64,000 bases of DNA, taken from positions 32,001 through 96,000 of the IMG/VR virus record IMGVR_UViG_3300028025_003409. One strand, given 5' to 3'. The translations under genes and the position numbers were made by a program. Positions within the stretch are counted from its first letter, which is position 1, and every line of letters starts with the position of its first letter. The notes under the pieces are model-generated. The model did no database searches. It was not told the origin of the DNA and was given only the letters and a program-made list of their open reading frames with translations. This document shows, piece by piece, positions 5,006 to 41,894 of the stretch. The DNA is from a virus.

Positions 5006-5740
5006 TTACTTAAAAACTTTTTTTTGCCAGAATTTTAGTCTATATCCATTCTGAAACATTGACCTAACAACTCTTCTTTGTAGATTGGTTTTTTCTGGAT
5101 CAAACTCTTTGTCAATTTCCATTTCCCACTCATCACGCCTAAAAGGAAATACTTGTGCTAATGGAGTTCCTTGTTTAATTATGCCTTTAAAGTTTTTCTG
5201 TATAAAAAATGATAGATGACCATCGGACCAAAACTTATCAGTATCAATAATTGCTTCAACTGCTCTGAGTGGCGAAGGTGGTTGATGAATTGGTTGCATA
5301 AATAAAGTACTAAAGCCTTCTGGAGTGCTGACCATCCATGTTGGATGAATTCTTAATATCTGATTACAGTAAAGATTTTGATCTAATGGCAAATGAGAAA
5401 CTTGTTCTGTTGAGTGATGAGCAATTAATTCTGCTTTAAATCTTTGCATTTCTGCTGGAAGTTGAACATCAAATCTTCCTTCTGTGGTATCAATATATAT
5501 ATCTACAGGAACCTTTAGCATATATCCCATAGACATGGAGTCAAAGAAAGCCTGACACTTTTTTACTGTAAGTCTAAAACTACCATTTTCTGGAATTTCT
5601 GGATTTGGGCCAGTAATACTTGGTTGATGTCTATACCAGTCTGGAACATTTTTAGTTCCTGGTTCTGGCAAAGGAAACACATCTACTAGATGAGGGTATG
5701 CCTGAAGAAACTTAATTTTATTAAATGGTATTTTTTTCAT
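5006..5740 (-). CDS. Conserved phage protein, paralog of 54647-55387
   Basis: Shared motifs PxWYR, KxCxxFxDxMSxGY, IxDxDxxW, FxGxIxxGTPxAQxxPxxRDxW, YRxxxWxKK. Confidence 0.7.
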   Translation of the reverse strand: MKKIPFNKIKFLQAYPHLVDVFPLPEPGTKNVPDWYRHQPSITGPNPEIPENGSFRLTVKKCQAFFDSMSMGYMLKVPVDIYIDTTEGRFDVQLPAEMQRFKAELIAHHSTEQVSHLPLDQNLYCNQILRIHPTWMVSTPEGFSTLFMQPIHQPPSPLRAVEAIIDTDKFWSDGHLSFFIQKNFKGIIKQGTPLAQVFPFRRDEWEMEIDKEFDPEKTNLQRRVVRSMFQNGYRLKFWQKKVFK

Positions 5741-5779: not shown

Positions 5780-7147
5780 TTATACCTTGGAGTTGTGGAC
5801 TACCATGTTACCAGCGATAATAGTATCGACAGGGAATGCATTAAACTTGAATACATTTCTTGTTTCTTCGATATATTCTACGCTTGTTACAGGTGTTGCT
5901 GTCATGCCAAATTCTTCTGCTTCAAAGATAAAGTCACTTGTCAATACCTTTTCTGCCTCAAGGAACATATGAGTATTGTCTCTCTTAATAAGAACCTTTT
6001 CTCCTTCAGTAAATCTCTTGCCCTTGTCACCGTTAAAGAATAGTGTTTTTTCTTTAACAGATGGCTCGATAGCGATAATTTCTGAGTTAACTCTTGAGAC
6101 TTGTTCAAGAACTGCTGGGTAAATTGTTGATGCTGATGGATCAACTGATTCATCTAGCAATCCATCCCAACTGATAGACCAGATTTTTTCTCCAACAACA
6201 ATGTCTTTTGCTGCCTTAAACTCTATTGAATTATCTTCACCAATAACTTGAATCAGTGTGTCTTCATCAATACAATATCTCAGTGGTACGAATGAGTAAG
6301 GTCCTGGTGTAAATGAAAATGTTGGTGTGAATGAATATGTTGGTGTAAAAGAATATGGTGTAAAAGAATAAGGTGTAAATGAATATGTTGGTGTAAATGA
6401 ATACGGTACAAATGAATATGGCACGAATGAGTAAGGTACGAATGAATATACTGGTGTAAATGAATAGGGTACGAATGAATAAGGTGTAAATGAGAATGGT
6501 ACAAATGAAAACGGTGTAAATGAGAATGTTGTTACTGATGCAGATGGAGAAGAAACTGCAGAGTTACCATTAGCATTTGTTGCATAAACTGTATATGTTT
6601 GTGCTGTTCCGCCTTCTTGTGATACTGAAACAGATGTTCCTGCTTGTGTTGCACCCTTTCCATCTGAAGATGCCCAAGTATAAGAAGTAATTGCAGATCC
6701 ACCATTTGCTGGTGCAGTCCAAGATACAGAGTCTGTTGTTGATCCCGCTACGTTAGCACCAGCAGAAGGTGTTGGGGATGATACTGACGGAGCAGCAGGC
6801 GCTGCAGGAACTGTTGTTACAGTCACAGAAGCAGAGGCAGTAGATACAGGAGATATGCCTGCAGCATTTGTTGCCCGAACTGTAAATGTTGGTGTTGCTT
6901 CTGATGCAATGCCAGTCACAATAATTGGAGAGGATGCTCCAGTTGCTGTCTGTCCTGTGCTTGCTGTTACTGTATAAGATGTGGCAGCAGGCGATAGTGC
7001 TGGTAAGGCAAATGCTACAGAAACTGCACCATTATTAAAAGCCCGTCCTGTTCCTACGTTTGTTCCAGTAACACCTGTTGGTGCTAATGGCTCCAAAAAG
7101 TCATTTGACGCTTGAGACTTCTTACCTATCTTCTTACCTGCTGCCAT
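5780..7147 (-). CDS. Virion surface protein: two fibronectin-III-like domains, YSFTP repeats and a C-terminal Hint domain
   Basis: FN3 signatures (FTVRATNAAG, VSWTAPANGGSAITSY, YTVYATNANG); 15 pentapeptide repeats; CIDEDTLI...VVHN-SKV. Confidence 0.85.
   Translation of the reverse strand: MAAGKKIGKKSQASNDFLEPLAPTGVTGTNVGTGRAFNNGAVSVAFALPALSPAATSYTVTASTGQTATGASSPIIVTGIASEATPTFTVRATNAAGISPVSTASASVTVTTVPAAPAAPSVSSPTPSAGANVAGSTTDSVSWTAPANGGSAITSYTWASSDGKGATQAGTSVSVSQEGGTAQTYTVYATNANGNSAVSSPSASVTTFSFTPFSFVPFSFTPYSFVPYSFTPVYSFVPYSFVPYSFVPYSFTPTYSFTPYSFTPYSFTPTYSFTPTFSFTPGPYSFVPLRYCIDEDTLIQVIGEDNSIEFKAAKDIVVGEKIWSISWDGLLDESVDPSASTIYPAVLEQVSRVNSEIIAIEPSVKEKTLFFNGDKGKRFTEGEKVLIKRDNTHMFLEAEKVLTSDFIFEAEEFGMTATPVTSVEYIEETRNVFKFNAFPVDTIIAGNMVVHNSKV
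5792..6274 (-). other. Hint/intein-like domain (161 aa, Cys1 to His-Asn, followed by SKV-stop)
   Basis: Block A CIDEDTLI; KDIVVGEKI; block B FTEGE; block G VVHN/S; no endonuclease. Confidence 0.8.
6284..6526 (-). repeat. 15 coding repeats of (Y/F)SF(T/V)P
   Basis: Translation FSFTP FSFVP FSFTP YSFVP YSFTP...; synonymous codon variation between units. Confidence 0.95.
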
Positions 7148-7179
7148 GTCTATCTCCTAATTTCTTATTGAATTTTGTA

Positions 7180-8691
7180 TTACGCTGTCAAGTCGCCGTA
7201 GACAACCCATGTATTTGCTGCTCTCTTAAAGAGAGTACAAGATGACCAGGTTGTACGAAGTTTCAAGCCAGGTGTTGCATTTACTGTGACTGTTCCTGAT
7301 ACTGGGGCGATTGTTACTTGTCCCGCTCCTGTTTGAAGAATGTCAATAGATGTTCCGATTGGGAAATCCAGTGTTGCATCTGTTGGGATTGTTAGTGTCA
7401 TTGCTGATGCTGAACCCATCTCAATTAAATCATCTCTTTCGGTTAGTGATGAAAGTGTGTATGATGCTGTCTTTTGTGAAATTGGTGTTAAAGAATCTAC
7501 CTTTAGTCCAAGGTTTGTTGTTACTGATGCTGCAAAGTTTGCGTCATCACCAAGTGCTGCAGCAAGTTCATCAAGGGTATTAAGTGCTGCTGGAGCACCA
7601 GTTAGAAGTGCGTTTACCTGTGATGTTGCATCTGCAATTGCTTCTGCCTTTGCTGTTGCGATTGCTGTAGACTGTGCTGTTGATACTGGCTTTGATGCAT
7701 CTGCTGTGTTATCAACATTTCCAAGACCAAGTGAAGTCTTTGTAACTGCTGCTACATCTGCTGTAGTTGCAAGTAGAGAAGTATCTGCAATTCCGTGAAC
7801 ATTTGTTGTTATTGCATTCTGTGTAGATATCTTTGTATCTGCTGCTAGTCCTGCTGCAGTGATTGCTGCTGTTTCTGCTGCATCTGCTGCATCATCTGCA
7901 TACGCTTTTGTTGCTAGAAGTGCTGTGTCAACAATTCCGTGAACATTTGTTGTATCATCATTATGTGTTGATACTAAACCACTTGCATATGACTGTGTTG
8001 CTAGAAGTGCTGTGTCTGCAATCCCATGTACATTTGTTGTGTCTGTGTTATGAGTATCTAGCATTGTTGTGGTAACTAGAAGACTTGTATCTTGAATTCC
8101 GTGAACACTTGTCGTGTCTGCACTATGTGTGTCTACTGCGTTATCAGAATATTGCTTAGTAGCAAGAAGTGATGTATCTGCAATGCCGTGAACGCCAGTA
8201 GTGTCACCTGTGTGACCATCTAAAACTGTCTGTGTTACCAAAAGGCTTGTATCTGCAATACCATGCACATCTGTTGTGTCTGAATTATGTGTTGAAATGT
8301 TTGCTGTGGTTGCAAGTAGTGAAGTATCTACAATCCCATGAACATTTGTTGTGTCTAGATTGTGTGTGTTAATTGCTGTTGTTGTAAAAGTGTTTGATTC
8401 GTCAACTGATGTATTAATTGACATTTCTATGGCTGTTCCAAAATTGGCGTCGTCGCCAATTGCTGCTGCCAATTCGTTTAAAGTATTAAGTAGTTCTGGA
8501 GCACCGTCTACAAGGGCAGCAATCTCAGATGCAGAAGCATAATATGTCAGAGAAGACCATGTGTTTACTCCGTCACCAATCTTAAACTTGTTTGTTCCGC
8601 TTTCAAAGCCAATTTCTCCTGCTGCTAGAATTGGGTTTGCAGTAGTCCACTGCTGTGCAGTTCCTCTGCGCTGTTGCATTCTTGTTGCCAT
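7180..8691 (-). CDS. Tail fibre with Mtd/hyaluronidase-type N-terminus and 7 His-containing repeats
   Basis: RMQQRRGTAQQWTTANPILAAGEIGFE N-terminus; GAPxxLNTLxELAAA twice; HxxDTTxVHGIxDTxLLxT repeats; C-terminal domain shared with 15505-16137. Confidence 0.8.
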   Translation of the reverse strand: MATRMQQRRGTAQQWTTANPILAAGEIGFESGTNKFKIGDGVNTWSSLTYYASASEIAALVDGAPELLNTLNELAAAIGDDANFGTAIEMSINTSVDESNTFTTTAINTHNLDTTNVHGIVDTSLLATTANISTHNSDTTDVHGIADTSLLVTQTVLDGHTGDTTGVHGIADTSLLATKQYSDNAVDTHSADTTSVHGIQDTSLLVTTTMLDTHNTDTTNVHGIADTALLATQSYASGLVSTHNDDTTNVHGIVDTALLATKAYADDAADAAETAAITAAGLAADTKISTQNAITTNVHGIADTSLLATTADVAAVTKTSLGLGNVDNTADASKPVSTAQSTAIATAKAEAIADATSQVNALLTGAPAALNTLDELAAALGDDANFAASVTTNLGLKVDSLTPISQKTASYTLSSLTERDDLIEMGSASAMTLTIPTDATLDFPIGTSIDILQTGAGQVTIAPVSGTVTVNATPGLKLRTTWSSCTLFKRAANTWVVYGDLTA

Positions 8692-8745
8692 ATTTTATTT
8701 CTCCTTATGGGTGCTGCCCATTTATCTTATTATAACATCAATTTT

Positions 8746-9195
8746 TTAATTGAAATTATCTACTACACTACCGCCATCAAATACAACTGTCCAAACTGAT
8801 GTGTCTGGGCCACCTGCATCTAAACCTACACCCAATGGGCTGTTGAATGATCCACCTTCATAGAACTGAGATACAATGAAACCAGTTCCATCAATTGCGG
8901 TATCGTGAATGTGCTGTGGTAAATTATTTGTATCATCAATAGTTGCTTGGGTATACCAAGATCCATTGTAATAGAAATTAACTCTATTTGTTACGGTGTC
9001 TAACCACTGTGTTCCGTTTGTTGGTGAAGAGGGAGCAATTGAGTCAACAGTCATTGATCTTGAATCAACATACTCCTTAGTTGCTGCATGTGAGTTTGTT
9101 GTAGGTGTTCCTACTGTCACTGCATCTCCGAATGTACCGCCGTTAGTTACGACTAAGCCATTCTTGACCTTGAAGTCTTTATTCTCTGTTGTCAT
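8746..9195 (-). CDS. Small tail fibre-associated protein
   Basis: NKDFKVKNGLVV N-terminus shared with 9226-11589; AATKEYVD and APSSPTNGTQWLD fibre motifs. Confidence 0.7.
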   Translation of the reverse strand: MTTENKDFKVKNGLVVTNGGTFGDAVTVGTPTTNSHAATKEYVDSRSMTVDSIAPSSPTNGTQWLDTVTNRVNFYYNGSWYTQATIDDTNNLPQHIHDTAIDGTGFIVSQFYEGGSFNSPLGVGLDAGGPDTSVWTVVFDGGSVVDNFN

Positions 9196-9225
9196 TTATT
9201 GCTCCCTTTTCCACACAAATTTTTA

Positions 9226-11589
9226 TTACTTAAGAAGTGTTCCAGTTACCTTGATTGTTGAATCATTTACTGGATCTACTCTTACTTCTACATTTGCACC
9301 AGATACTCGTGCTGTAATGCTTCCTCTTGTACCATTTGTTCCAACGATTGCATATTCTGTGATTGCAATGTTGTCTGATGAGTCTAGAGTAAGAAGTATT
9401 TCAGAAACTTCATTATCTGTTGCGTTGTCAATCTTAACCATTAGTTTTGCTGAACGATAGTCAGCCTTTGGCCATGAATATGCAGTTACTACAACTGATC
9501 CAAGTGATGAAGAAGTTGCTGCAATCTGCTTAGCCTCAGAGTTTACATTTATTTCTGTAAATGCTGTTGTTCCAGCAAGAACATCATCAAGTGCTTCTTG
9601 GGCTGTGGCCTCTGCTGCTGACTGGGCAGTTGATGCTGAACCTGCTGCATCGTATGATGCTGCGGTTGCTGATACTGCTGCTGCATTAAAGTCTGAGATA
9701 TCTGCTGCATCAAGACCAGTTACAGAGATTGTTGCCCCTGTAATGTCAATGTTTGATCCTGCAGTTAGTGCATCTTGCTTTCCTGCTGCAATACCCTGAA
9801 GTGAGTTAAGTGCATCTGGGTCATTGTCAAGTGCTGCTGCCAACTCCTGAAGTGTATTCAAAAGTTCTGGTGCTGAACCAACAAGGTTTCCAACTGCAGT
9901 ATCTGTGTAATCCTCTGCTGCTGAAATTGCCTCTGACTTTGCGGTTGCAATAGCAGAGTTACGATCTGTAACCTCTGTTGAGATTGCAGTTGAAAGTGCT
10001 CCTGCTGCAGTTGCTTCTGCTGCTGCTTGTGCAGCATTTGCCTTTGAAGTAGCATCTGCTGAGGCAGTTGCTTCTGCACCTGACTTAGCGTTATTAGCCT
10101 TAGTTGTGGCATCTGACGCTGCTGCTGCGACTGCATCTGAGTATGCTGTGTTTGCTGAACCTGCTGCATCGTAGTTGATTGCAAGGCCGTCTGCGTAGTC
10201 TTCTGCTGCTTCTTGTGCTGCTGCTGCTGCACCATACATATCGTATGCTGCTGATGTTGCATCAAGTGCTCTTTGGTTTGTGAAGTAAAGGTTTGAACCT
10301 TCTTCAATATCATCTGTATCAAGAAGGTTTATCTGATCCCCAATTGTTCCACCCACAGCATCAATTGCTCGCTGGTTAGTGAAGTATAGGTTTGTTCCTT
10401 CTTCAATGTCTGTTGTGCTTATGTCATTTACCGCAGATGTAATTGCAGAGTTTCTATCTGCTACTTCTTGAGTAATTGCTGCTCCGATTGCAGTGTTACG
10501 GTTTGTAACTTCTGTATCGATAGCAGTTGAAATTGCAGAGTTTCTATCTGCTACTTCTTGTGTAATCTTTCCATCTGTAGCAAGGTTTGATGCTGCTTCT
10601 GCTGCATTCGCCTTAGATGTCGCATCAAGGGCTGCGGTTGCTTCTGCTGCTGCTCGTGCAGCATTTGCCTTTGAAGTTGCATCTGCTGAGGCTGTTGCTT
10701 CGGCTGCAGTCTGTGCTGCTGAAGCGTATCCCTGTGCTGCTGTGTCAAGATCAGAAATTTCTGAGTCAACATATGATGTAGCAGCCTTTGTTCCAACAAG
10801 AGTTGTAAGGTTTGTAATTGTATCTGGTGCATCACCAAGTGCTTGTGCCAACTCATCAAGAGTATTTAGAAGTTCTGGTGCTCCATTAACAAGTGCTGAC
10901 ACTGCAGAGTCTGTATATCCTTCTGCTGCAGAGATTGCTTCTGCCTTTGCTGTAGAGATATCTCCAGTTACTGTTGTATAAAGTGTTGAGTTTGCATTTG
11001 ATGCAGTCAACTCTGCTGCTGCTTGGGCTGCATTTGCCTTTGAAGTAGCATCTGCTGAAGCGGTTGCTTCTGCTGCAGATTGTGCAGCATTTGCCTTTGA
11101 AGTAGCGTCTGCTGCTGCTGTAGTTATAGCATCTGCTTCTGCTTGATCAGCATAAGCCTTAAGTGAAAGATCGAGTAATGATACTTCATCGTCTGTGTAT
11201 GAGTTTGCTGAAGCCTCTGCTGCATCTGCTTTAGATGTTGCATCTGTTGCTGCTGCAGAAATTGCCTGAGACTTTGCTGTTGCAATGTCTGATGTTACTG
11301 TGGTGTACAAAGATGTATCTGCTGCTGTAGCAAAATCTTGTGCTGCAGTCTGTGCTGCTGCTGCTGCGCCTGATTCATCAAATACGCCTGACTTAATATT
11401 TAGTTCGCCAGCAATAACTTCCATCTGTGTTGCTTCAACAGATGTTACAAGTGTTTCTCCACCAATCAAATTAATAATATATTGATCTGATGTATCCTCT
11501 GTAAGTATTTGCTTTCCTGCTACTGTAGCGATTGATCCTTCAACTACCAGGCCATTTTTGACCTTAAAGTTTTTATTTACTGTTGCCAT
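9226..11589 (-). CDS. Long Ala-rich coiled-coil tail fibre
   Basis: Many ADATSKANAA repeats; TxDIEEGxNLYFTNQRA twice; APELLNTL twice. Confidence 0.8.
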   Translation of the reverse strand: MATVNKNFKVKNGLVVEGSIATVAGKQILTEDTSDQYIINLIGGETLVTSVEATQMEVIAGELNIKSGVFDESGAAAAAQTAAQDFATAADTSLYTTVTSDIATAKSQAISAAATDATSKADAAEASANSYTDDEVSLLDLSLKAYADQAEADAITTAAADATSKANAAQSAAEATASADATSKANAAQAAAELTASNANSTLYTTVTGDISTAKAEAISAAEGYTDSAVSALVNGAPELLNTLDELAQALGDAPDTITNLTTLVGTKAATSYVDSEISDLDTAAQGYASAAQTAAEATASADATSKANAARAAAEATAALDATSKANAAEAASNLATDGKITQEVADRNSAISTAIDTEVTNRNTAIGAAITQEVADRNSAITSAVNDISTTDIEEGTNLYFTNQRAIDAVGGTIGDQINLLDTDDIEEGSNLYFTNQRALDATSAAYDMYGAAAAAQEAAEDYADGLAINYDAAGSANTAYSDAVAAAASDATTKANNAKSGAEATASADATSKANAAQAAAEATAAGALSTAISTEVTDRNSAIATAKSEAISAAEDYTDTAVGNLVGSAPELLNTLQELAAALDNDPDALNSLQGIAAGKQDALTAGSNIDITGATISVTGLDAADISDFNAAAVSATAASYDAAGSASTAQSAAEATAQEALDDVLAGTTAFTEINVNSEAKQIAATSSSLGSVVVTAYSWPKADYRSAKLMVKIDNATDNEVSEILLTLDSSDNIAITEYAIVGTNGTRGSITARVSGANVEVRVDPVNDSTIKVTGTLLK

Positions 11590-11602
11590 TTTTTATATCT
11601 CC

Positions 11603-12049
11603 TTAAGCCTTTAGTCCAATTCGTGCAAAACGAACTGTTATAGGTGTTAAACCGCCTACTGGAGTGACTGATAAAGCCACGGTATTTCCAGAGCGGGAGA
11701 CATTAATGGTGCCAATATTCCCATCAGTGTCGACTGTTCCGTATTCGGTTACATTTATGTTTGTACCGTCAACAAGAACAGTTAATTCTGTTGCATAAAA
11801 TTTATTATCGCCTTGCGATGTCTTTGATATTGAAACAATATACTTGACCATACGAAAAACCGTTGCATCGAAGTTGTCAACGACTGTAGTCATCTCAATT
11901 CCGTTTACTGTTGTTTCGTTATTACCTGCTGTACCCAAATCTGTTGCTTGGGATGACAGAGTGTCGATGAGATCTACGTAATCTTCTTGGGTAGGACGAT
12001 CACCAGTTTGAAACTTTAACTTAACATTCGGAATTGTGAGTTTGGCCAT
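11603..12049 (-). CDS. Structural protein sharing its C-terminal beta domain with 9226-11589
   Basis: FQTGDRPTQEDY N-terminus; RxxKxxV...E...TEY.xVxT pattern in both proteins. Confidence 0.6.
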   Translation of the reverse strand: MAKLTIPNVKLKFQTGDRPTQEDYVDLIDTLSSQATDLGTAGNNETTVNGIEMTTVVDNFDATVFRMVKYIVSISKTSQGDNKFYATELTVLVDGTNINVTEYGTVDTDGNIGTINVSRSGNTVALSVTPVGGLTPITVRFARIGLKA

Positions 12050-12082
12050 GCTGTAATTATAACATGCTTTTTAATAGGATAA

Positions 12083-12307
12083 TTAGAGAATATAGTTGCT
12101 GTAGCCAATAACCTGAAGTGGAATTGCGGGGGTATTTCCTAAACCAATAGCCTGAATCTGAATGGCTGTAAACTTAACCCTAAAAGGAAGTATTTCAGTT
12201 ATTAAAGTATTTATTGCTATATCTTCTATCTTAACCAATGAGTATTCTATTGGAAAGATTCGCTCTGTTTTATTGTTTAGTTCATCAAGAATTAATGCTG
12301 TGGCCAT
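12083..12307 (-). CDS. Hypothetical protein (structural module)
   Basis: 74 aa ORF translationally coupled to the upstream gene. Confidence 0.55.
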   Translation of the reverse strand: MATALILDELNNKTERIFPIEYSLVKIEDIAINTLITEILPFRVKFTAIQIQAIGLGNTPAIPLQVIGYSNYIL

Positions 12308-12717
12308 TAATCTGTTACATCTTCAAGAATCTTCATGCTACCCTGGCAAACTGTCCATACTCTTGTTGGATCACTAACCTGGATATCAAAGATGTCTCCT
12401 GTCTGTAAAACATTAGATTCTTCTGCTGTAAGCCAAACCGTAAACTCTCCGACTAGGTCATCTTCATCTGCAACTGGATGCAGAGCCATAATTGTTGTAG
12501 CGTCATCTGTAATAACTCCAGGCTTTGATGTGGGTCTTTTAATTTTCATAGCAATGTCCCACTCAGATCCTTCGCCTTTTAGAACTAAAGGCTGCTTTGC
12601 ATCATCTGTTACATAAACTTTAAATCCAGACGTGTCTCCACGAACAACAGTCCAAATAACTGTAGGAGGTTTATTTCCTATGTCGTATGATGTTTGAGAT
12701 CCTCTTAAAGTTGCCAT
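12307..12717 (-). CDS. Baseplate/adaptor-like protein (GDT family, related to 17262-17621 and 18436-18816)
   Basis: W.VVRGDT N-terminus and FDIQV...WT..G...DVT C-terminus. Confidence 0.55.
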   Translation of the reverse strand: MATLRGSQTSYDIGNKPPTVIWTVVRGDTSGFKVYVTDDAKQPLVLKGEGSEWDIAMKIKRPTSKPGVITDDATTIMALHPVADEDDLVGEFTVWLTAEESNVLQTGDIFDIQVSDPTRVWTVCQGSMKILEDVTD

Positions 12718-12735
12718 TGTTTTATTATATCACTA

Positions 12736-13257
12736 TTAAGACAAACCGTCTTTAAGTGCTCCCCATGTTCCGTTTCCTTTTGCCTCTACAATAATTACTC
12801 CTGTGTTTGATGCATGTGCAACAACTCCAACTGCCCCTGAGCCACCTGTAGGTCTAACATTTGTTAACCCACCAGATGTTCCAACATACAGCACATCACC
12901 ATTTTCAAATCCAGATGTATTTATATTTTCCATAACCCCTGCAACTACTGCAATCCCATCAGATCCGTTTGCTACTGGAGTTTTTAATAATCCCAATATT
13001 GGAGATTCGGTCAAAGGCAGTGCCTTTGCAATTGTAGTTTTTGTTGTATGACCAGTCGCATATACTGGTGTTCCTGCAGGTAAATTTTCTCCGCTATTAT
13101 TTAAAATTCCAAGTTGAAATTGAGATAATCCAAGTGGTGGCAAGATAACCATTAATCTATCTACAAGTGATTCAATATCCTCGTGTACATTTACTGGGTC
13201 ATTTGCAAGCGGGTATGGTAATTTAAATAACGCATCATTAGTATTTCCAGTAGCCAT
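12736..13257 (-). CDS. Structural protein (capsid-cement-like beta fold)
   Basis: NNSGENLPAGTPVY...GDVLYVGTSGGLT pattern. Confidence 0.5.
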   Translation of the reverse strand: MATGNTNDALFKLPYPLANDPVNVHEDIESLVDRLMVILPPLGLSQFQLGILNNSGENLPAGTPVYATGHTTKTTIAKALPLTESPILGLLKTPVANGSDGIAVVAGVMENINTSGFENGDVLYVGTSGGLTNVRPTGGSGAVGVVAHASNTGVIIVEAKGNGTWGALKDGLS

Positions 13258-13362
13258 AGTATATTTATTATACCACCTTCTAAAGTTGACTTTTGGTAAA
13301 ATTTTGTGTTATACTAGGTGTAGACACCTACCAGGGTGTTATTGTTTTCTAAGGAGGAAACT

Positions 13363-13926
13363 ATGATTAAATTTATCGAAAGAAACAAAGAGATCATTAG
13401 CACACTCAGTATTGTATTGTTAGTAGCGATATCTTCTAATGCTGCTAATGCTGCTCCAGAACTAAATACGAAAAATAATCTTAGCCTTGAACAGGCTCAG
13501 ACATCGGAAACCGCCTCGAAAGAGGTTTTTTTGGTTTCTAAGACAAAAAAACTAGAGAGTTTTGAGAATAAGGTTTCTCTAACTGATTTAGAACTAAAAG
13601 AACTACTTTCGCTAGTAGGCTTCAAGGGCAAAGACCTTGTTGTTGCTTGGGCAGTGGCTAAGAAAGAGTCCAATGGGCGACCATTGGCTTTTAATGGCAA
13701 TCACAAGACTGGTGACTCATCTTATGGTATGTTCCAAATCAATATGATTGATACCCTTGGTCCTGATCGTAGAACCAAGTTTGATCTTGACTCTAACGCT
13801 GAACTATTCAATCCCGTCAAAAACGCAGAGATTGCATACTACATGACTAACGGTGGAGAAGATTGGTCCTCATGGAAAGGCATTACTCCAAGAACCAAAT
13901 CCTGGATGGCTAAATTTCCTAAGTAG
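13363..13926 (+). CDS. Secreted lysozyme-like/lytic transglycosylase
   Basis: AAGGAGG RBS before ATG 13363; signal-peptide-like N-terminus; AVAKKESNG (catalytic Glu), SYGMFQIN, FNPVKNA, WSSW. Confidence 0.8.
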   Translation: MIKFIERNKEIISTLSIVLLVAISSNAANAAPELNTKNNLSLEQAQTSETASKEVFLVSKTKKLESFENKVSLTDLELKELLSLVGFKGKDLVVAWAVAKKESNGRPLAFNGNHKTGDSSYGMFQINMIDTLGPDRRTKFDLDSNAELFNPVKNAEIAYYMTNGGEDWSSWKGITPRTKSWMAKFPK

Positions 13927-13937
13927 TTTATTAAAAG

Positions 13938-13968
13938 ATAGGGGGCCTTTATTGGCCCCTTATTTTTT
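13938..13968. terminator. Bidirectional intrinsic terminator
   Basis: GGGGCC-TTTATT-GGCCCC hairpin flanked by A and T tracts between convergent genes. Confidence 0.7.
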
Positions 13969-14210
13969 TACCATTTTTTAATTGGACATTCTGCATACTT
14001 TAAGTGTGTCTTTAGTTTCATGAAGCAGCCACACTGTTTACATGTTGCTGTTAATTTTATTAATTCTGGACAAGATTTGCAAATATCTAGTCTTTCAAAA
14101 GCAATGTCTTCAGATACTCTGTTTCCAGGCTTTATGATGTCCCAAGGCTTAACTTCTCCCATATTTTTTCTAAATCTGTCCCATATTTTTTCATCTGAGT
14201 TTTCTTCCAT
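13968..14210 (-). CDS. Small Cys-rich protein (DUF6171-like)
   Basis: RLDICKSCP...TCKQCGCFM..KT.L...CPIKKW. Confidence 0.7.
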   Translation of the reverse strand: MEENSDEKIWDRFRKNMGEVKPWDIIKPGNRVSEDIAFERLDICKSCPELIKLTATCKQCGCFMKLKTHLKYAECPIKKW

Positions 14211-14228
14211 ACTACAATTTTATCACAA

Positions 14229-15497
14229 CTAGACCTTAGAGTTGTGTACTACCATATTTCCAGCAATAATAGTGTCTACTGGGAAAGCGTTAAACTTAAA
14301 GACATTTCTTATTTCTTCAATATAGTCAAGTGAAGATACTGGAGTTGCTACCATTCCAGAATCTGTTGGCTCAAAAATAAAGTCATTTTCTGTCACTGTT
14401 TTTGCCTCAACAAATATATGTGAATCTAGGCGTTTAATAAGAACTTTTTCTTCTGGGGTAAATCTCTTTGTTTTATCACCATTAAAGTATAAGGTTGTAT
14501 CTTTTGTTGATGGGCTAATCTGTACAATTTCAGATTGAACCCTTTTAACATTTTTAAGATTTTCTGGGTAAATTGTTGATGCTCCAGGGTCTTGCAGATC
14601 ATCAAGTAGTCCATCCCAAGTGATAGACCAAATTTTATCTCCAAGGACAATATCTTTTGCTGCCTTAAACTCAACAGAGTTTTCATATCCAACAATCTGA
14701 ATAAGTGTATCTTCATCAATACATACTGTGAGTGGTACGAAGGAGTATGTTGGTGTAAAGGAGTAAGGAGTAAAAGTATAAGGAGTAAATGTATACGCAG
14801 GTGTTGGTGTGAATGTGTAAGTAGGTGCTGTTGGTGTAAAGGTATAGGCAGTTGGAGTAAATGTGTAAGCAGGTGTTGGAGTAAATGAATACGGAGTAAA
14901 TGAATAAACTGGACTACAAGTTGCTGCAGCAATTGGGGATGGGCCTTCTTCTGGACCTGGTGCACAATTAAAGTTGTTTCCAGGACCAAGTTCTCCCATT
15001 TGTGTAAGCAATTGCTGAACTTGTGAACAAGTCTTATTTGGCCAGAAGTAAGGACCAACCACTGATCCATCTGCACCAGATGCTGGGTTGGAACAGTGTG
15101 TGTACCATACACCAGTTGCGGCAACTGGAGTAAATGAGTATGGAGTAAATGAGTATGGAGTAAATGTATATGCGGTTGGAGTAAATGTATATGCGGTTGG
15201 AGTAAATGTGTATGCAGTTGGAGTAAAAGAATAAGGAGTAAAAGAATAAGGAGTAAAAGAAAAATTATAGTATGTATAAGAAACATTTGTTTCGTAGTCT
15301 ACAAGAGAATCAAATGATGGATTTTGAGATGCAATTTTTTGATTTAAAGAATCATCTGCCGTATCTGTTGAACCAGTCTCCAGTGGAACAAGTCCATTAC
15401 TAACAATTGATGATGAGGCAGTTGTTCTAGTCAAACCAGAAAGATTAGGTACTTTTACCATACCCTTTAAAGATGACCAAAAACCAAAATTTAGCAT
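14229..15497 (-). CDS. PASTA-like domain, YSFTP/YTFTP repeats, 4-Cys insert and C-terminal Hint domain
   Basis: VKVPNLSGLT...IASQNP (PASTA-like); 17 pentapeptides; CIDEDTLI...VVHN-SKV closely similar to 5792-6274. Confidence 0.85.
   Translation of the reverse strand: MLNFGFWSSLKGMVKVPNLSGLTRTTASSSIVSNGLVPLETGSTDTADDSLNQKIASQNPSFDSLVDYETNVSYTYYNFSFTPYSFTPYSFTPTAYTFTPTAYTFTPTAYTFTPYSFTPYSFTPVAATGVWYTHCSNPASGADGSVVGPYFWPNKTCSQVQQLLTQMGELGPGNNFNCAPGPEEGPSPIAAATCSPVYSFTPYSFTPTPAYTFTPTAYTFTPTAPTYTFTPTPAYTFTPYTFTPYSFTPTYSFVPLTVCIDEDTLIQIVGYENSVEFKAAKDIVLGDKIWSITWDGLLDDLQDPGASTIYPENLKNVKRVQSEIVQISPSTKDTTLYFNGDKTKRFTPEEKVLIKRLDSHIFVEAKTVTENDFIFEPTDSGMVATPVSSLDYIEEIRNVFKFNAFPVDTIIAGNMVVHNSKV
14241..14723 (-). 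other. Second Hint/intein-like domain (161 aa)
   Basis: Cys1; FTPEE in block B; identical C-terminus RNVFKFNAFPVDTIIAGNMVVHNSKV. Confidence 0.8.
14733..15263 (-). repeat. Two blocks (8 + 9) of (Y/F)(S/T)F(T/V)P repeats flanking a Cys-rich domain
   Basis: Direct translation. Confidence 0.95.
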
Positions 15498-15504
15498 CTT
15501 TAAC

Positions 15505-16137
15505 CTAAGCCGTCAGGTCACCAAGAAGTAGCCAGGTGTTAGTGTCAACTTTTGTAAGAACTGCACCAGAGTACCTAGAGGATATCTTTTTGTTTGAGTT
15601 TTTGCTGTTAATAATTACACCTGGTGTTGCACCTGCAAAAGAAACTGCCCCAGTTCCATACCGAATAAACTCAATTTTTTGCCCTATAGAAAAGGCTGCA
15701 ACACTGTTTAATGGAATGGTTATAACAATATCTGAAGAAGACTCTACAGAAATAGTTTTTCCTGAATCAGATTTTGCAACGGTATAGTCAGAAGTCTTTG
15801 TAACAAATGTTGCAGAATCGTTTACATATCTCCAAGCAGATCCAGAATAATACTGGACTTGGTCTATTGGTGTTCCATCATCTTCTTGTCTAACAAAACA
15901 AACTAAGCCTGCTGTTGGAGATGTTAAAACAGCGTCTCTTGCTGTTGGGTTTTGAAAATTATTAATTCCGCCCTTGGCTTTAATAACATTATTAAATGTA
16001 GTTGCTGCGGAGAATGTTTGCTCGGCTGACCAAGTATATTCTTGATTTGTATTTACTGATCCACCAATAGCGTACCAAGTATCGTCAGATTCGTTGTATA
16101 TATAAGCATTCTTTCCATCAGTATTAATTGTTGCCAT
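15505..16137 (-). CDS. Tail fibre-associated protein
   Basis: C-terminus (KTSDYT...F.IG..I...G.G.V...W...GDLTA) homologous to the C-terminus of 7180-8691. Confidence 0.7.
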   Translation of the reverse strand: MATINTDGKNAYIYNESDDTWYAIGGSVNTNQEYTWSAEQTFSAATTFNNVIKAKGGINNFQNPTARDAVLTSPTAGLVCFVRQEDDGTPIDQVQYYSGSAWRYVNDSATFVTKTSDYTVAKSDSGKTISVESSSDIVITIPLNSVAAFSIGQKIEFIRYGTGAVSFAGATPGVIINSKNSNKKISSRYSGAVLTKVDTNTWLLLGDLTA

Positions 16138-17261: not shown

Positions 17262-17621
17262 TTAGACTCCTTGAGTTACGTCTGCTGTAACAGTAACTGT
17301 TCCAGTTAGGATTGTATATACAAGTGGGTATGGCGTTGCGCTTTTGCTAATCTGAATATCATAAACATACTGTGTACCAGCAGTTAATTGTGCTCCATCT
17401 GCTGGTCTAATCGCACAGATTGCTTTTGTAGGGTCATCTGCACTGACTACAGCGTAGCACTCTACTGGAGTTGTTCCAGATCCTCTTTGTGTAGATATCG
17501 AAAACTTGATTGTGTAGCCAGACATGATAAAAGCGGATCCATCGCTTTGTTTTGGGTAGATAGAAAAATCTTGAGTATCACCCTTGTAGTATGTTAAGTT
17601 TAGTTCTCCTGGAAATGCCAT
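17262..17621 (-). CDS. Baseplate/adaptor-like protein (GDT family)
   Basis: YYKGDT...YVYDIQI...ILTGTVTVTADVT. Confidence 0.6.
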   Translation of the reverse strand: MAFPGELNLTYYKGDTQDFSIYPKQSDGSAFIMSGYTIKFSISTQRGSGTTPVECYAVVSADDPTKAICAIRPADGAQLTAGTQYVYDIQISKSATPYPLVYTILTGTVTVTADVTQGV

Positions 17622-18435: not shown

Positions 18436-18816
18436 TTATAGACTTCCTGTAATATCACCAATGACCGAAATAGTTCCAATCAAAGGTGTCCAGATTGTTT
18501 CTCCATCAATGGTTACTTGAAGATCAAAAGTTAATTCTGTTACAACTGATTTAAATCCAATACCCCAAAACTGAGTAATTGATGCTGGGGCCATAATGTC
18601 GACATATCCAACTCCTGGTGTAATTTCCAGGGAATCAAGAAAATCAGACTGAGGATCATAAGAGGTAGCCTCATAGGTCCAATCGGAGGTATCAAAATAT
18701 GTTGCTTCGTCATCCTGCAAGAATTCAACACGAAGCGGAGAGGTATCTCCTCTAACGATATTCCATTTGATACGAGCAGGGTCTGCTCCAAAAATCTCAG
18801 GTGCACAAAGAGTCAT
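18436..18816 (-). CDS. Baseplate/adaptor-like protein (GDT family)
   Basis: WNIVRGDT...FDLQV...WT..GTISVIGDIT. Confidence 0.55.
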   Translation of the reverse strand: MTLCAPEIFGADPARIKWNIVRGDTSPLRVEFLQDDEATYFDTSDWTYEATSYDPQSDFLDSLEITPGVGYVDIMAPASITQFWGIGFKSVVTELTFDLQVTIDGETIWTPLIGTISVIGDITGSL

Positions 18817-20177: not shown

Positions 20178-20947
20178 TGATTCAAGATATATTAGACACT
20201 ATCGAGTATTCAAAACAACTTATCATATCCCCCGATATGGATGGGTTTATGACGGCAAAATTATTAGAGCGTTTTAACGGTTCGAAAATAGTAGGTTCTT
20301 ATGATAAGAATCTTTTATGTCTCGCCGACGGGATCAACCCAGAGGAATGCTTGTTCGTCGATTGCGATATGAATAGGCAAGAGTATGTTTCTCTCGGAAA
20401 TCATATGCGCTTGCTTGAGGACAATATGTCGGTTGAATCATTTAATCCAAATGTGCACTTCGGCGTTTCGATATATAGCGACAAGTTTCCCTTCGCCACT
20501 GCGTTTTTAATTTCGTTCGCAACAGAGGCCCAAACCTCCGAAGAAGACCTTATCCGCATGGCTTTCGCTGATTCTACATTACGCAATATGGAAAAATATA
20601 GCGACAACATGCGAAATTGGTCTACACGGATGGATCATCCTGCAGTTAAGTACATAGTGGACAATTCGGACATTGCAAAAAGAAATGATGCACAAGCAAG
20701 GTTTGATTATGTAGACCAATCATTTACATCTAAAAGATACGGCAAGGCAAGATATCTGGATACCCTTAATAAGGCCCTAGAAGGCCAGGGGATGAAGTTT
20801 GAACCACTTACCAGGGGTAGCAAGTACATCTGCGACAAAGTTGGCAAAGAAACCGTTATGCGGTATAATAGAGATATCATATCTTACGCAGAGATCTTTA
20901 CAGGAGAATACTCTGTTACCTATGACCAAGAGACGGAATGGAAGTAA
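20177..20947 (+). CDS. DHH-like phosphoesterase-related protein
   Basis: SPDMDG, FVDCD and GNH acidic/His motifs. Confidence 0.45.
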   Translation: MIQDILDTIEYSKQLIISPDMDGFMTAKLLERFNGSKIVGSYDKNLLCLADGINPEECLFVDCDMNRQEYVSLGNHMRLLEDNMSVESFNPNVHFGVSIYSDKFPFATAFLISFATEAQTSEEDLIRMAFADSTLRNMEKYSDNMRNWSTRMDHPAVKYIVDNSDIAKRNDAQARFDYVDQSFTSKRYGKARYLDTLNKALEGQGMKFEPLTRGSKYICDKVGKETVMRYNRDIISYAEIFTGEYSVTYDQETEWK

Positions 20948-20948
20948 T

Positions 20949-21554
20949 ATGTTTACATGGGGAAAACACCTTATCAGAGTTGTTCATAATTTTGCTACGC
21001 CAGATGAGTTGTCTATCCTAGATGACTACTTAAAGTCACTTCCAGATTTTCATACAAAATCAGTCTCATGGCTAGATTTTATTGAAGCCGAGCATTTGCC
21101 AGAGTATAAAATTGATGATCCAAACGTAGAAAAGGTTATGCGTGAATTAAATACACGAACTAACAAATACATAACAGAAGTCTATTTCCCCGAATCAGAG
21201 TTAAGTGTCATCAGAGATAATGGAAATAGAGAGTTGGAACTTGTTAGATGGAGTGCTATGTCACACCTTGCTCCTCATTCAGACTGGAGACTTGCAGATG
21301 GATCTCCTTATCCATTAACACTGCCACAATTTACAATTGGATCTCTTATATATATCAATAAAGACTATGCAGGCGGAGAGATTAACTTTCCAGATTATGA
21401 TTTTAAGTTAGATCCCCAACCTGGAGATTTAATTTTGTTTCCCTGCCAATATATGCATGAAGTTCTACAAGTACTTCCACTTAAAGGAAAAGAAAAAGCA
21501 AACAGATATACCATGCCAGTATTTTACTGGTTTGACTTAGAGGAAAAGGAATAA
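20949..21554 (+). CDS. 2OG-Fe(II) oxygenase, prolyl 4-hydroxylase-like
   Basis: HSD...YINKDYAGGEINFP...FP..MHEV...R; true start ATG 20949. Confidence 0.85.
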   Translation: MFTWGKHLIRVVHNFATPDELSILDDYLKSLPDFHTKSVSWLDFIEAEHLPEYKIDDPNVEKVMRELNTRTNKYITEVYFPESELSVIRDNGNRELELVRWSAMSHLAPHSDWRLADGSPYPLTLPQFTIGSLIYINKDYAGGEINFPDYDFKLDPQPGDLILFPCQYMHEVLQVLPLKGKEKANRYTMPVFYWFDLEEKE

Positions 21555-21756: not shown

Positions 21757-22521
21757 TTAGTCGACAATAGTTTCTCTAGAACCAGGTTTATTGGCTTCAA
21801 AACCAAATATAAGGTTTGCTCTAGGCCCTATAGCAGACACTTCATGCCATAGTTCTTTAGGTATAAAGATTACATCTCCTGGCTCTAGGATAAACTCTGT
21901 AGGTTCTGAATCATACGCTTCTGATGTACGCCATCTTGTTTTGCCCAAACACTGAAGGTTAAGCACATCAGCGTTATCTCTATGCCTTGTTGAAGACTTG
22001 TCCCAATCGGTTACAGAAAATACAGAATTAATGTCTGTTAGTTCGCCATCATAGATTTCTGTCAATTCTCTAATATAGAAGTCTTTGTTTCTATAGTGAT
22101 CGGATGTCTTAGGCGATACTAAATTGAATTCCCCCCAAAATTGTAAAATACCTATAACCTTCTTGCCAGCCTTCTCAAATGCTTCATTTCTAAACATTGG
22201 ATCATCATCATGTGCACAGGAGTTTACGTTATTTAAGAATTCTTCCCAATATGGAAGCATGTCTTTTGGGATAGCCCCTCTTAGAACTGTTCCAGTGTTT
22301 GTTAGTACTGCGTTTAGGATCTGATTATGATATAAGTCTTTTTTGTTGCAATCCTTACATACCGTTTCTGAAAAAATTTTTACAGACAGGTTTTCTGGAT
22401 CAGGCCTACCTAGGTCTTCCCAAAATTGTTCTCTACCCATGGAGTCAGTGTTAGGCATTGCTTTTGATTCGAACTGGAATTCACTGTCCCAGGCATTTTC
22501 TAGATTGTCCAAAATTCCCAT
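21757..22521 (-). CDS. JmjC/cupin-4-like hydroxylase
   Basis: RHRD..VL.LQCLGKTRW; LEPGDVIFIP..LWHEV; R. Confidence 0.8.
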   Translation of the reverse strand: MGILDNLENAWDSEFQFESKAMPNTDSMGREQFWEDLGRPDPENLSVKIFSETVCKDCNKKDLYHNQILNAVLTNTGTVLRGAIPKDMLPYWEEFLNNVNSCAHDDDPMFRNEAFEKAGKKVIGILQFWGEFNLVSPKTSDHYRNKDFYIRELTEIYDGELTDINSVFSVTDWDKSSTRHRDNADVLNLQCLGKTRWRTSEAYDSEPTEFILEPGDVIFIPKELWHEVSAIGPRANLIFGFEANKPGSRETIVD

Positions 22522-33106: not shown

Positions 33107-33180
33107 GGTCCGTTAGAATAGTTGGTTAGTTCGCCACCCTGTCACGGTGGAGGTCATGGGTTCAAGTCCCATACGGATCG
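33107..33180 (+). tRNA. tRNA-Asp(GTC)
   Basis: Acceptor GGTCCGT/ACGGATC; anticodon arm CCACC-CTGTCAC-GGTGG; GGTTCAAGTC T-loop. Confidence 0.92.
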
Positions 33181-33371
33181 CAAGTAAATAAATATGCAAC
33201 GCAATGTATAAAAATTTGGGACGTCCCCTGTGACTTACATCACATGAGATTTTTAACTAAATAACTTTACGATAGGGTGATATTTTCCCCAAAAATTCTT
33301 TACGATAGATTTGACTTTTTCCCCAAACCATGCGATAATTAATATATAACCCACTAAAAAAGGAAAACCCC

Positions 33372-41459: not shown

Positions 41460-41533
41460 GCACCAGTAGCCAAGTTGGTTAAGGCCCCGAACTCATAATT
41501 CGGTTATCATAGGTTCAAGTCCTATCTGGTGTA
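41460..41533 (+). tRNA. tRNA with CAT anticodon (elongator Met or Ile2)
   Basis: GCACCAG/CTGGTGT; CCGAA-CTCATAA-TTCGG. Confidence 0.9.
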
Positions 41534-41537
41534 CTAA

Positions 41538-41610
41538 TGGGGATTAACTCAGTTGGTAGAGTGGCGAACTGTTAATTCGCAAGTCGCAGGATCGAGGCCT
41601 GCATCCCCAG
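41538..41610 (+). tRNA. tRNA-Asn(GTT)
   Basis: TGGGGAT/ATCCCCA; GCGAA-CTGTTAA-TTCGC; atypical T-loop GATCGAG. Confidence 0.85.
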
Positions 41611-41614
41611 CAAT

Positions 41615-41687
41615 GTCTCCATGGTCTAGTGGCCTAGGACTCCACCCTTTCACGGTGGCAACACGGGTTCGAATCCCGTTGGAGATA
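41615..41687 (+). tRNA. tRNA-Glu(TTC)
   Basis: GTCTCCA/TGGAGAT; CCACC-CTTTCAC-GGTGG; GGTTCGAATC. Confidence 0.92.
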
Positions 41688-41691
41688 CTAA

Positions 41692-41764
41692 ACCTCTGTA
41701 GTTCAGTGGACAGAACGATGGACTTCTAAGCCATGCGTCGCAAGTTCGATTCTTGCCAGGGGTA
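41692..41764 (+). tRNA. tRNA-Arg(TCT)
   Basis: ACCTCTG/CAGGGGT; anticodon loop CTTCTAA; GTTCGATT. Confidence 0.88.
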
Positions 41765-41894
41765 CTTTACTTTTTAGGATGTTTTGGTTCGTATGGTTCA
41801 ATCTTAGATTTAATACGACCATCTTTATATAGTCTTACAATCCAACCATCTTTAATTTGCATTGGATTAAATGCATGTGCTTTTTTCTTTGGCA

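Follow-up and report, generated by a model that had tools for sequence, protein, structure and literature searches.

Known phage inteins reside in enzymes of replication and packaging; BIL (bacterial-intein-like) domains have been found in bacterial surface proteins. Another self-processing module, Peptidase_S74, is a self-cleaving C-terminal intramolecular chaperone of phage tailspikes and fibres and acts as a Ser-Lys dyad protease. Our literature search for Hint-capped phage fibres or appendages returned classical inteins in genes such as those for terminase and RNR, and nothing else. Type-A BIL domains have been described [Amitai 2003; Dassa 2004, as summarised in PMC7765530], and the precedent for BIL self-cleavage and splicing has been reviewed [PMC7765530]. 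In the case of the Tetrahymena BUBL BIL2, splicing links the C-terminus of the N-extein to the epsilon-amine of a lysine [PMC8616854].

Here we discuss two adhesin genes of an uncultured 109-kb phage, both located in the window, i.e., the 64,000-nucleotide stretch of DNA that was analysed. Each encodes a protein that ends in a Hint domain which, as judged from its sequence, is most likely self-processing. We found no earlier description of protein-splicing chemistry on phage appendages.

Two adhesin genes with a repeat tract and a terminal Hint domain

The two genes, their domains, and the neighbouring fibre genes are listed in Table 1; both adhesin reading frames were verified at these coordinates. 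Adhesin 1 starts with a basic N-terminal peptide carrying an SNDFLEP motif, which is followed by two FN3-like domains, an aromatic/Pro repeat tract, the Hint domain, and the tail Ser-Lys-Val (SKV). In adhesin 2, a PASTA-like N-terminus precedes two repeat blocks with a Cys-containing spacer between them, and then the Hint domain and SKV. The distinction between FN3 and PASTA-like N-termini, already drawn in the initial annotation, is upheld. FN3 is recognized through 23 relatives and a profile that strongly matches titin/fibronectin FN3, without a Pfam call in the window copy. Adhesin 2 itself gives a weak PASTA match (E 0.0016), and PASTA is on record in close relatives.

Table 1. Coordinates of the two adhesin genes, their domains, and the upstream fibre genes in the window.
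Feature	Coordinates	Strand	Description
Adhesin gene 1	5780..7147	(-)	455 aa
Gene 1 C-terminal tail Ser-Lys-Val ("C-extein")	5783..5791	(-)	Stop codon 5780-5782
Gene 1 Hint domain	5792..6274	(-)	Cys292 to Asn452; AlphaFold, Foldseek, and intein profile matches
Gene 1 aromatic/Pro repeat tract	6275..6532	(-)	Residues 206-291; 15 [YF][ST]F[TV]P units (regex count)
Tail-fibre gene directly upstream of adhesin 1	7180..8691	(-)	503 aa; Mtd_N-type N-terminus
C-terminal domain of the 503-aa fibre	7183-7527	(-)	About 100 aa; gp10/XD-like, putative docking; ends ...VVYGDLTA
Adhesin gene 2	14229..15497	(-)	422 aa
Gene 2 tail Ser-Lys-Val	14232..14240	(-)	Stop codon 14229-14231
Gene 2 Hint domain	14241..14723	(-)	Cys259 to Asn419; 71% identity with copy 1
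Gene 2 repeat block 2	14724..14906	(-)	Residues 198-258; 9 units
Gene 2 spacer between repeat blocks	14907..15125	(-)	73 aa; four Cys
Gene 2 repeat block 1	15126..15263	(-)	Residues 79-124; 8 units
Short fibre gene directly upstream of adhesin 2	15505..16137	(-)	210 aa
C-terminal domain of the 210-aa fibre	15508-15852	(-)	Homologous to that of the 503-aa fibre; ends ...LLLGDLTA

The 15 and 17 repeat units counted earlier agree with our regex count, which gives 17 [YF][ST]F[TV]P units in adhesin 2, split 8 + 9. Moreover, Tandem Repeats Finder detects 15-nt periodic arrays in both genes (6305-6524, 14764-14906, and 15126-15261), so the repeats are real at the DNA level. In Hint-less PASTA-type relatives, Pro-rich repeats are likewise split by Cys modules similar to the gene 2 spacer.

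From Cys292 and Cys259, respectively, to the stop codon both proteins have 164 residues, i.e., 161 from Cys through the terminal His-Asn plus SKV, just as the initial annotation described. It had also pointed out that the last 26 residues are identical in the two copies, and so they are; 13 of the 78 underlying nucleotides differ and every change is synonymous. Recent gene conversion as the origin of the identical ends is ruled out by these 13 differences, and the identity is therefore attributed to selection. For the two Hint copies, dN/dS is 0.19 at a dS of about 1.1. The Hint domain is complete and selectively maintained, with the repeat tract on one side and a three-residue tail containing the Lys on the other. 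The junction of tract and Hint reads ...FVPLRY-CIDEDT.

Fold and relatives of the Hint domain

That the terminal domain would belong to the Hint families was a proposal to be checked by profile searches and structure prediction, and both confirm it. The AlphaFold model has a pLDDT of 96.9 and a pTM of 0.91, and in the PDB Foldseek finds 49 matches at E <= 0.001, every one an intein, a Hedgehog Hint, or a BIL domain, nearly all with a TM of 0.6-0.7. Among inteins, the matches of the family profile range from 2e-8 to 1e-4 (Pho RadA, 2e-8; KlbA, 1e-7); the Clostridium thermocellum BIL is matched at 2e-6, and Pfam Intein_splicing (PF14890) is matched by 44 of 82 relatives. As a single-sequence query the window Hint gives no Pfam or PDB match, and the homology is visible only via family profiles and fold. 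The 161-aa domain is thus a genuine Hint fold of the bacterial-intein-like/mini-intein kind.

The best profile and fold matches are class-1 mini-inteins (Pho RadA, Mja KlbA, and Npu/Ssp DnaB), with which the window copies share Cys1, the block-B Thr, His-Asn, and Ser+1; as for these inteins, Hint-less host homologues exist. However, class-1 inteins sit at a conserved enzyme site, while the phage Hint is hosted by a hypervariable adhesin and has a C-extein of only 1-5 residues in most members. In addition, the block-B His and the block-F Asp/His are replaced in the window, and Ser+1 is not conserved.

Type-A BIL domains have in common with the phage family the Hint fold, an N-terminal Cys, a C-terminal His-Asn, the lack of a homing endonuclease, a location in variable regions of non-conserved surface proteins, and a +1 nucleophile that is usually absent family-wide. 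The C. thermocellum BIL structure (PDB 2LWY), matched in Foldseek at 4e-5, scores below the archaeal mini-inteins with the family profile, which is no closer to BIL-A than to those inteins. Type-A BIL domains reside in bacterial secreted proteins, in contrast to the virion appendage proteins that host the phage family. Unlike them, the phage Hint always lies 0-30 residues from the C-terminus and always after an aromatic/Pro repeat, with a conserved Lys at +1/+2, a block-B His that is often Gln or Glu, and Asp in place of the block-F His.

Tetrahymena BIL2 (PDB 6Y75/6TMM) is matched at a Foldseek E of 3e-5, and the phage family resembles it in having a Lys right behind His-Asn. The BIL2 lysine, however, is part of a folded, ubiquitin-like C-extein and the reaction is zinc-regulated, whereas the phage Lys, a candidate acceptor, lies in a tail of 1-5 residues. 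Hedgehog/Hog proteins are alike in that a C-terminal Hint releases the N-terminal functional part via a Cys thioester, which is predicted for the phage proteins, and in fold (1AT0 and 6TYY, TM 0.69-0.77). They lack His-Asn, whereas the phage family has it but no sterol-recognition region and no sign of a lipid or small-molecule adduct. Peptidase_S74 is likewise a C-terminal appendage module expected to remove itself after folding/assembly, but its fold and chemistry are unrelated to a Hint thioester with Asn cyclisation; identity with an S74-type chaperone was rejected, as there is no S74 match in Pfam.

Catalytic positions

Blocks were assigned by aligning the family profile to two solved inteins, KlbA (THDHP) and Pho RadA (TPSHP). 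In domain numbering, the relevant residues of the gene 1 Hint are C1, T89, E92, D114, K143, D150, H160, and N161. T89-x-x-E92 aligns with the block-B T-x-x-H of both inteins; the block-F Asp aligns with K143, a variable column, and the block-F His with D150, which is Asp in 69/82 relatives. Hence, the change from TxxH to TxxE and the loss of the block-F Asp/His, both suggested in the initial annotation, are borne out by the alignment. Glu at the block-B His together with Lys and Asp at the block-F positions suggests that the rate and order of the steps may differ from that in studied inteins, or that activity is low.

Across the family, the catalytic positions are the best-conserved columns, while the loops are variable. 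The first residue is Cys in 61 of 63 complete sequences and Ser in the other two. Block B has Ser or Thr in all 82 relatives, with only Q, H, or E at the His position (31, 29, and 22, respectively), which means that the T-x-x-H motif is kept in part, and the terminal His160 and Asn161 are found in 75/82 and 78/82. The domain has 161 aa with no insert and no homing endonuclease, and most members have no more than the 1-5 residues mentioned above after it, with nothing there that resembles a sterol-recognition or substrate-recruiting region. A Lys occupies +1 or +2 in 72 of the 82. Both window copies have HN and then Ser+1; family-wide, S is present at +1 in only 8/82, the residues in use being S, G, A, K, L, Y, R, and F. 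Even inside the YSFTP clade the tails vary (KKI, GKV, AKGF). This variability indicates that canonical class-1 splicing is not the family-wide mechanism.

A portable cassette and its Hint-less relatives

A search for repeat + Hint architectures, which the initial annotation had called for, yielded 74 viral loci and, at 50% identity, 101 clusters, with genomic contexts taken from IMG/VR. In all of them the domain lies at the C-terminal end and follows an aromatic/Pro tract: over the 60 residues that precede Cys1, aromatic residues average 31% and Pro 26% (41 relatives), compared with 11% and 8% upstream. When two members of the family were compared by tblastn with 50,697 deposited phage genomes, no match was obtained; all known members come from uncultured viral contigs. 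The N-terminal domains of the hosts vary (FN3, PASTA, Ig, and others), and one clade of the Hint tree with 99% support contains 27 PASTA-type and 18 FN3-type hosts mixed. With this mixing of FN3, PASTA, and other hosts across the tree, repeat + Hint behaves as a portable cassette moving among unrelated adhesin genes, in keeping with what had been proposed from the two window copies.

Many close adhesin homologues have the same N-terminal domains and no Hint. For example, the N-terminal 205 residues of Hint-bearing P0001 are 78-81% identical to those of Hint-less P0145-P0148 (P0145, up to 81%). Hint-less proteins end at the repeat (..FNFSPR), in short basic/aromatic tails (GGKGFF or NKKFF), or in Cys-rich knots. 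The C-exteins of Hint proteins (YKGFF, AKGF, GKTFF, K; xKxFF form) look like these native tails; the homology between extein and tail is clear solely in the FFPP-repeat class, and K or R occurs within the last six residues in just 29 of 50 plain Hint-less tails. That so many homologues are encoded Hint-less points to the Hint-free adhesin as the functional end state.

The upstream tail fibre

The genes around the adhesins match PHROG tail-fibre families and a fibre gene lies directly upstream of each, which substantiates the earlier assignment to a tail module. The gene neighbourhood also includes 2OG-Fe(II) oxygenases, which may act on the repeat prolines as hydroxylases. In nearly all Hint loci the upstream fibre has a gp10/XD-like C-terminal domain ending in GDL(T/S)A, and 28 of 38 Hint-less adhesin genes also follow a GDLxA fibre. 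A fold search suggests that this domain resembles the Pa223 capsid spike, the N-terminal region of CBA120 TSP4, and T4 gp9; a PDB sequence search with the domain found nothing, and the likeness comes from the fold search only. Synteny and the monomer fold match together suggest that the adhesin docks on the upstream fibre. Two lysines of the domain, K89 and K101, are invariant whether or not the adhesin has a Hint. They were considered as evidence for ligation in trans and rejected as non-specific, since Hint-less adhesins pair with the same domain.

Models for the putative processing reaction

The model that we favour as probable is that the Hint is a mobile BIL/mini-intein-like cap, which would remove itself by cleavage or splicing, so that in the mature protein the repeat tract would form the distal end. 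Both genes would encode distal adhesins of the tail-fibre apparatus. The conserved N-terminal peptide may dock on the gp10/XD-like domain of the fibre encoded just upstream, with the FN3 or PASTA domains and the aromatic/proline tract pointing outward. An N-S acyl shift at Cys1 would convert the peptide bond at the end of the repeat tract into a thioester, to be resolved by water or by the tail, where Ser+1, present in this phage, and the Lys that the family keeps at +1/+2 are the candidate nucleophiles. Attack by the tail Lys or Ser might proceed as in BIL splicing without a +1 nucleophile or as in isopeptide formation by Tetrahymena BIL2. Cyclisation of Asn161, aided by His160, would then release the Hint. 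What remains would be an adhesin that terminates with the repeat tract, either bare or followed by SKV; many Hint-less relatives encode this same form directly. Ligation of the repeat tract to the SKV tail is a live option, because Ser+1 is present in the window, the Lys is conserved family-wide, and xKxFF tails resemble native tails of Hint-less relatives. The cap could keep a sticky repeat soluble until assembly, or it could be a tolerated intein-like passenger.

A stricter form of the passenger idea, which we consider unlikely, is a purely selfish mini-intein that spreads by recombination through repeat tracts without benefit to the phage and stays active only because a dead copy would spoil the adhesin. 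It would account for the presence and absence of the Hint among relatives as close as P0001 and P0145-P0148, for the incongruence between the Hint tree and the host domains, and for C-exteins that look like native tails. Yet the homing endonuclease is absent, and a useless Hint located 1-5 residues from the C-terminus could be deleted by one stop codon, while more than 100 clusters retain it. Moreover, two paralogues as diverged as those in the window are kept in one genome lineage, and the flank is always of one kind, the aromatic/Pro repeat. A retained Hint that serves, without processing, as a structural or receptor-binding end of the mature adhesin, interchangeable with the Cys-rich knots, appears very unlikely. 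The high variability of the C-terminal end (Hint, several Cys-rich knots, or plain tails) is typical of receptor-binding tips, and the non-canonical block-B His and block-F positions in the window would fit a domain of this kind. Conservation, however, peaks exactly at the catalytic columns (Cys1, block-B Ser/Thr, and His-Asn) and not in the loops, the block-B position is confined to H, Q, or E, all hydrogen-bonding, and a binding domain needs neither an invariant Cys as its first residue nor a terminal His-Asn.

The thioester might also be used for lysine-directed covalent ligation at the appendage tip, either to the Lys of its own tail as an isopeptide in the manner of BIL2, or to an outside amine on the fibre docking domain or, via PASTA, on host peptidoglycan; we regard this as a doubtful prospect. 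If true, welding to a peptidoglycan amine bound by PASTA would make adsorption chemically irreversible. A device working strictly in trans, Hedgehog- or BIL2-like, in which an outside nucleophile attacks the thioester and the adhesin C-terminus becomes covalently attached, seems quite improbable, and this holds also for the possible nucleophiles: a lysine of the fibre docking domain, a cell-wall amine of the host (PASTA suggests contact with peptidoglycan), or a small molecule. Points in its favour are that the thioester-forming residues are conserved, that in Tetrahymena BIL2 the N-extein becomes joined to lysines in other proteins [PMC8616854], that the fibre gene with its invariant K89 and K101 consistently precedes the adhesin gene, and that the PASTA and FN3 domains are compatible with cell-surface contact. 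Nevertheless, the same lysine-bearing domain partners Hint-less adhesins, so that its lysines cannot be tied specifically to Hint chemistry. The Hint is not followed by a region for recruiting a substrate, the conserved His-Asn and tail imply chemistry at the C-terminal junction that simple trans-ligation would not need, and on free virions a latent thioester would readily hydrolyse. Given the lack of a sterol-recognition-like region, the fibre and lysines that are the same without a Hint, and the many Hint-less homologues, a Hedgehog-like ligation with another virion protein or a small molecule as the partner, as envisaged in the initial annotation, gains no support and appears less probable than the self-removing cap.

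Implications

The family provides a name for well over a hundred clusters that are now annotated "hypothetical protein". A compact 161-aa C-terminal Hint with a 1-3-residue lysine tail and unusual blocks B and F may serve in the preparation of C-terminal thioesters or as a self-removing tag. The two-gene module, a GDLTA-docking fibre and an adhesin with swappable end caps, offers a system to ask how host-recognition tips are built and diversified in uncultured lake phages. Hint-capped adhesins would add protein-splicing chemistry to the maturation of phage receptor-binding organelles.

The adhesins and their fibre module

The source record is the complete, 109,057-bp genome of an IMG/VR virus with direct terminal repeats; the window covers its bases 32001-96000. 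GC content in the window is ~37%, and the encoded class II-like ribonucleotide reductase has its nearest deposited relatives in actinobacterial phages (~61% identity). The tail-fibre module occupies the minus strand from ~5 to 19 kb and contains PHROG tail-fibre and minor-tail matches, a collagen-like fibre, Mtd_N-type N-termini and an SLT lysozyme, together with three small phrog_1084 paralogues that may be fibre chaperones or connectors.

Genes of the fibre module and related features (window positions unless a related IMG/VR viral locus is named)
Feature	Position	Strand	Remark
Adhesin 1, FN3-type	5780-7147	-	455 aa; 15 [YF][ST]F[TV]P units
Fibre gene upstream of adhesin 1	7180-8691	-	adhesin 1 starts 33 nt past its stop
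Adhesin 2, PASTA-type	14229-15497	-	422 aa; 17 [YF][ST]F[TV]P units in two blocks
Spacer between repeat blocks of adhesin 2	14907-15125	-	73 aa, four Cys
Fibre gene upstream of adhesin 2	15505-16137	-	adhesin 2 starts 8 nt past its stop
phrog_1084 paralogues	12307-12717, 17262-17621, 18436-18816	-	between fibre genes
SLT-type lysozyme	13336-13926	+	inside module, opposite strand
DUF6171 gene	13968-14210	-	80 aa; directly downstream of adhesin 2
Weak DUF6065 match	5006-5740	-	directly downstream of adhesin 1
2OG-FeII_Oxy_3 gene	20799-21554	+
JmjC/cupin gene	21757-22521	-
tRNA genes (Asp, Met, Asn, Glu, Arg)	33107-33181 and 41460-41765	+	four tightly clustered
Genes after the Hint gene of locus L018	L018 8503-13245		sulfotransferase, Asp/Asn beta-hydroxylase, three 2OG-FeII_Oxy_3, DUF6065
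Broken PASTA-type adhesin of locus L011	L011 7300-8495		frameshift within repeat array; Hint in separate ORF

The adhesin repeats are true 15-nt arrays in the DNA. In both proteins the last unit is followed by three residues (LRY or LTV) and then by Cys1 of a 161-aa domain, which closes in His-Asn ahead of Ser-Lys-Val and the stop; the two ORFs, their repeat counts, this domain and the tail are as the initial annotation described them. The two domains, the only copies in the genome, share 71% identity. Their final 26 residues are identical, yet 13 of the 78 DNA positions differ, all synonymously, and the identity is therefore attributable to purifying selection; recent gene conversion is ruled out by the same differences. 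Between the two copies, dN/dS for the whole domain is 0.19.

The two upstream fibre proteins share homologous C-terminal segments of ~100 residues (33% identity, E 8e-12), and both end in GDLTA. In essentially all viral loci with a visible upstream gene, including those whose Hint identity is as low as 33%, the ORF before the adhesin closes in W-x-x-x-GDL-[TSK]-A. The confident model of this fibre domain (pLDDT 91) best matches the Pa223 capsid spike, the N-terminal region of CBA120 TSP4 and T4 gp9, which are domains where other fibre proteins dock. FN3-type adhesins have in common a SNDFLxP motif in a basic N-terminal peptide. We infer that the adhesin N-terminus docks on the end domain of the upstream fibre, which would place the repeat and the Hint domain at the distal end.

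A Hint domain with conserved catalytic positions

The 161-aa domain is a Hint domain. As a single query, the window sequence matches no Pfam or PDB entry. Exhaustive searching with HMMER recovered the domain from 101 representative clusters, where its end almost always lies a few residues, and at most about 30, from the C-terminus. The AlphaFold model, built from an 82-sequence alignment, has a pLDDT of 96.9, and the 49 Foldseek matches at E <= 0.001 comprise only inteins, Hedgehog autoprocessing domains and bacterial intein-like (BIL) domains. The family profile matches the Pho RadA intein (2e-8), Mja KlbA (1e-7) and a C. thermocellum BIL domain (2e-6). Taken one by one, 44 of the 82 relatives hit Pfam Intein_splicing.

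Profile alignment to KlbA and RadA sets T89-x-x-E92 of the window copies against the block-B T-x-x-H, K143 against the block-F Asp and D150 against the block-F His. Cys1 is present in 61 of 63 complete sequences. Across the 82 relatives, position 89 is always Ser or Thr, and position 92 is Gln (31), His (29) or Glu (22) and no other residue; His160 (75/82), Asn161 (78/82) and a Lys at +1 or +2 (72/82) are also well kept, and the +1 residue itself is variable. The best-conserved columns are thus the catalytic ones, which speaks for preserved chemistry and against a decayed Hint serving as scaffold.

In one subfamily (loci L096-L098, L106, L131, L135 and L146; proteins P0083 and P0086) the Hint domain ends in His-Asp instead of His-Asn, which may indicate a different C-terminal chemistry. 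A further C-terminal extension follows, which at several loci, L146 among them, reaches ~35-45 aa and ends ...YQQWK...; for P0083 and P0086 no more than its first few residues are visible. Another small group carries Tyr-Asn, with A-Y-P or G-C-P after it.

A mobile repeat and Hint unit

Every complete relative has an aromatic/Pro low-complexity tract before the Hint domain, of the YSFTP, FGFSP, FFAPP or FFPP type or, more rarely, a Pro-rich PIIAT or APVAAPT type. Over the 60 residues ahead of Cys1, aromatic residues make up 31% and Pro 26% on average, compared with 11% and 8% farther upstream. The N-terminal parts include FN3 (23/82), PASTA (13/82), Ig and others. In a tree of 137 Hint domains, the YSFTP-associated clade (99% support) has 27 PASTA-type and 18 FN3-type hosts, and the adhesin 1 copy is nested among PASTA-type copies. 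It follows that the repeat and Hint unit has been transferred among unrelated adhesin genes, which bears out the portable cassette that had been proposed. The frameshift in L011 may stem from slippage within the repeat or from an error in assembly.

Genes for protein-modifying oxygenases lie on the flanks of the fibre module, and the Pro-rich repeats are an obvious candidate substrate.

Homologues without the Hint domain

The FN3 part of adhesin 1 has >1000 relatives. The Hint domain is missing from 60 of 152 proteins examined, mostly from the FN3-part search, and from 38 of 64 complete, non-redundant genes of viral contigs. Hint-less genes retain the N-terminal domains and repeat tract (identity up to 81%); a GDLxA fibre gene precedes 28 of the 38, and the closely similar GDT(A/S)A precedes several others. 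Their ends are of three kinds: some stop straight after the repeat (..FNFSPR, ..FNFTPRVRAV), some carry a short tail (for example GGKGFF, NKKFF or SKFF), and some close in a Cys-rich knot of 20-30 residues. Hint-less PASTA-type relatives end in Cys-rich modules.

The knots are of several distinct kinds, e.g. ..GGCRGFKPYPYCFCQGTIWAC and ..GGCPSCYIESNCPSLWCFCTGPCDYNCVC, and take the same position as the Hint domain (proteins P0144-P0148, P0205, P0212 and P0244; loci L094, L110, L119 and L138); chain stapling and metal binding are possibilities. In the Hint-less PASTA-type proteins P0260-P0262, Pro-rich repeats alternate with Cys-containing modules like the adhesin 2 spacer, ahead of a terminal knot.

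In genes with the Hint domain, the C-exteins (K, YK, SKV, AKGF, YKGFF, GKTFF) look like native tails of Hint-less homologues, a likeness that is clear for the FFPP class only; homologues with such tails share 42-57% identity across the whole N-extein. Lys or Arg occurs near the end of only 29 of 50 plain Hint-less tails.

Predicted processing

The Hint domain sits, under strong constraint, exactly between the repeat tract and the short tail, and carries the residues that Asn cyclisation and an N-S acyl shift require. Read most simply, it would be a BIL/mini-intein-like element that removes itself, either by splicing the tail back on or by cleavage. In the window copies the +1 Ser would permit canonical splicing. 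The family-wide Lys suggests BIL-type aminolysis (reviewed in PMC7765530), a reaction like that of BIL2, with the lysine side chain as the attacking group (PMC8616854), or simply a tail residue that the adhesin needs. Trans-ligation of the adhesin to the fibre, the host cell wall or a small molecule seems improbable and gains nothing from the data: adhesins pair with the same fibre whether or not they carry the Hint domain, and an adduct-recruiting region is absent. A tip domain that does not process itself is likewise unlikely, given which columns are conserved.

A literature search found no account of phage fibres or adhesins that carry Hint or BIL domains, and deposited phage genomes hold no detectable relative. 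A Hint/BIL domain, known in kind, occurs here in a new and well-defined structural and genomic setting, with processing chemistry that is predicted. The end state accepted by selection is an adhesin closing in the repeat tract and a short tail, and the Hint cap may be either of benefit to the phage or a tolerated passenger.
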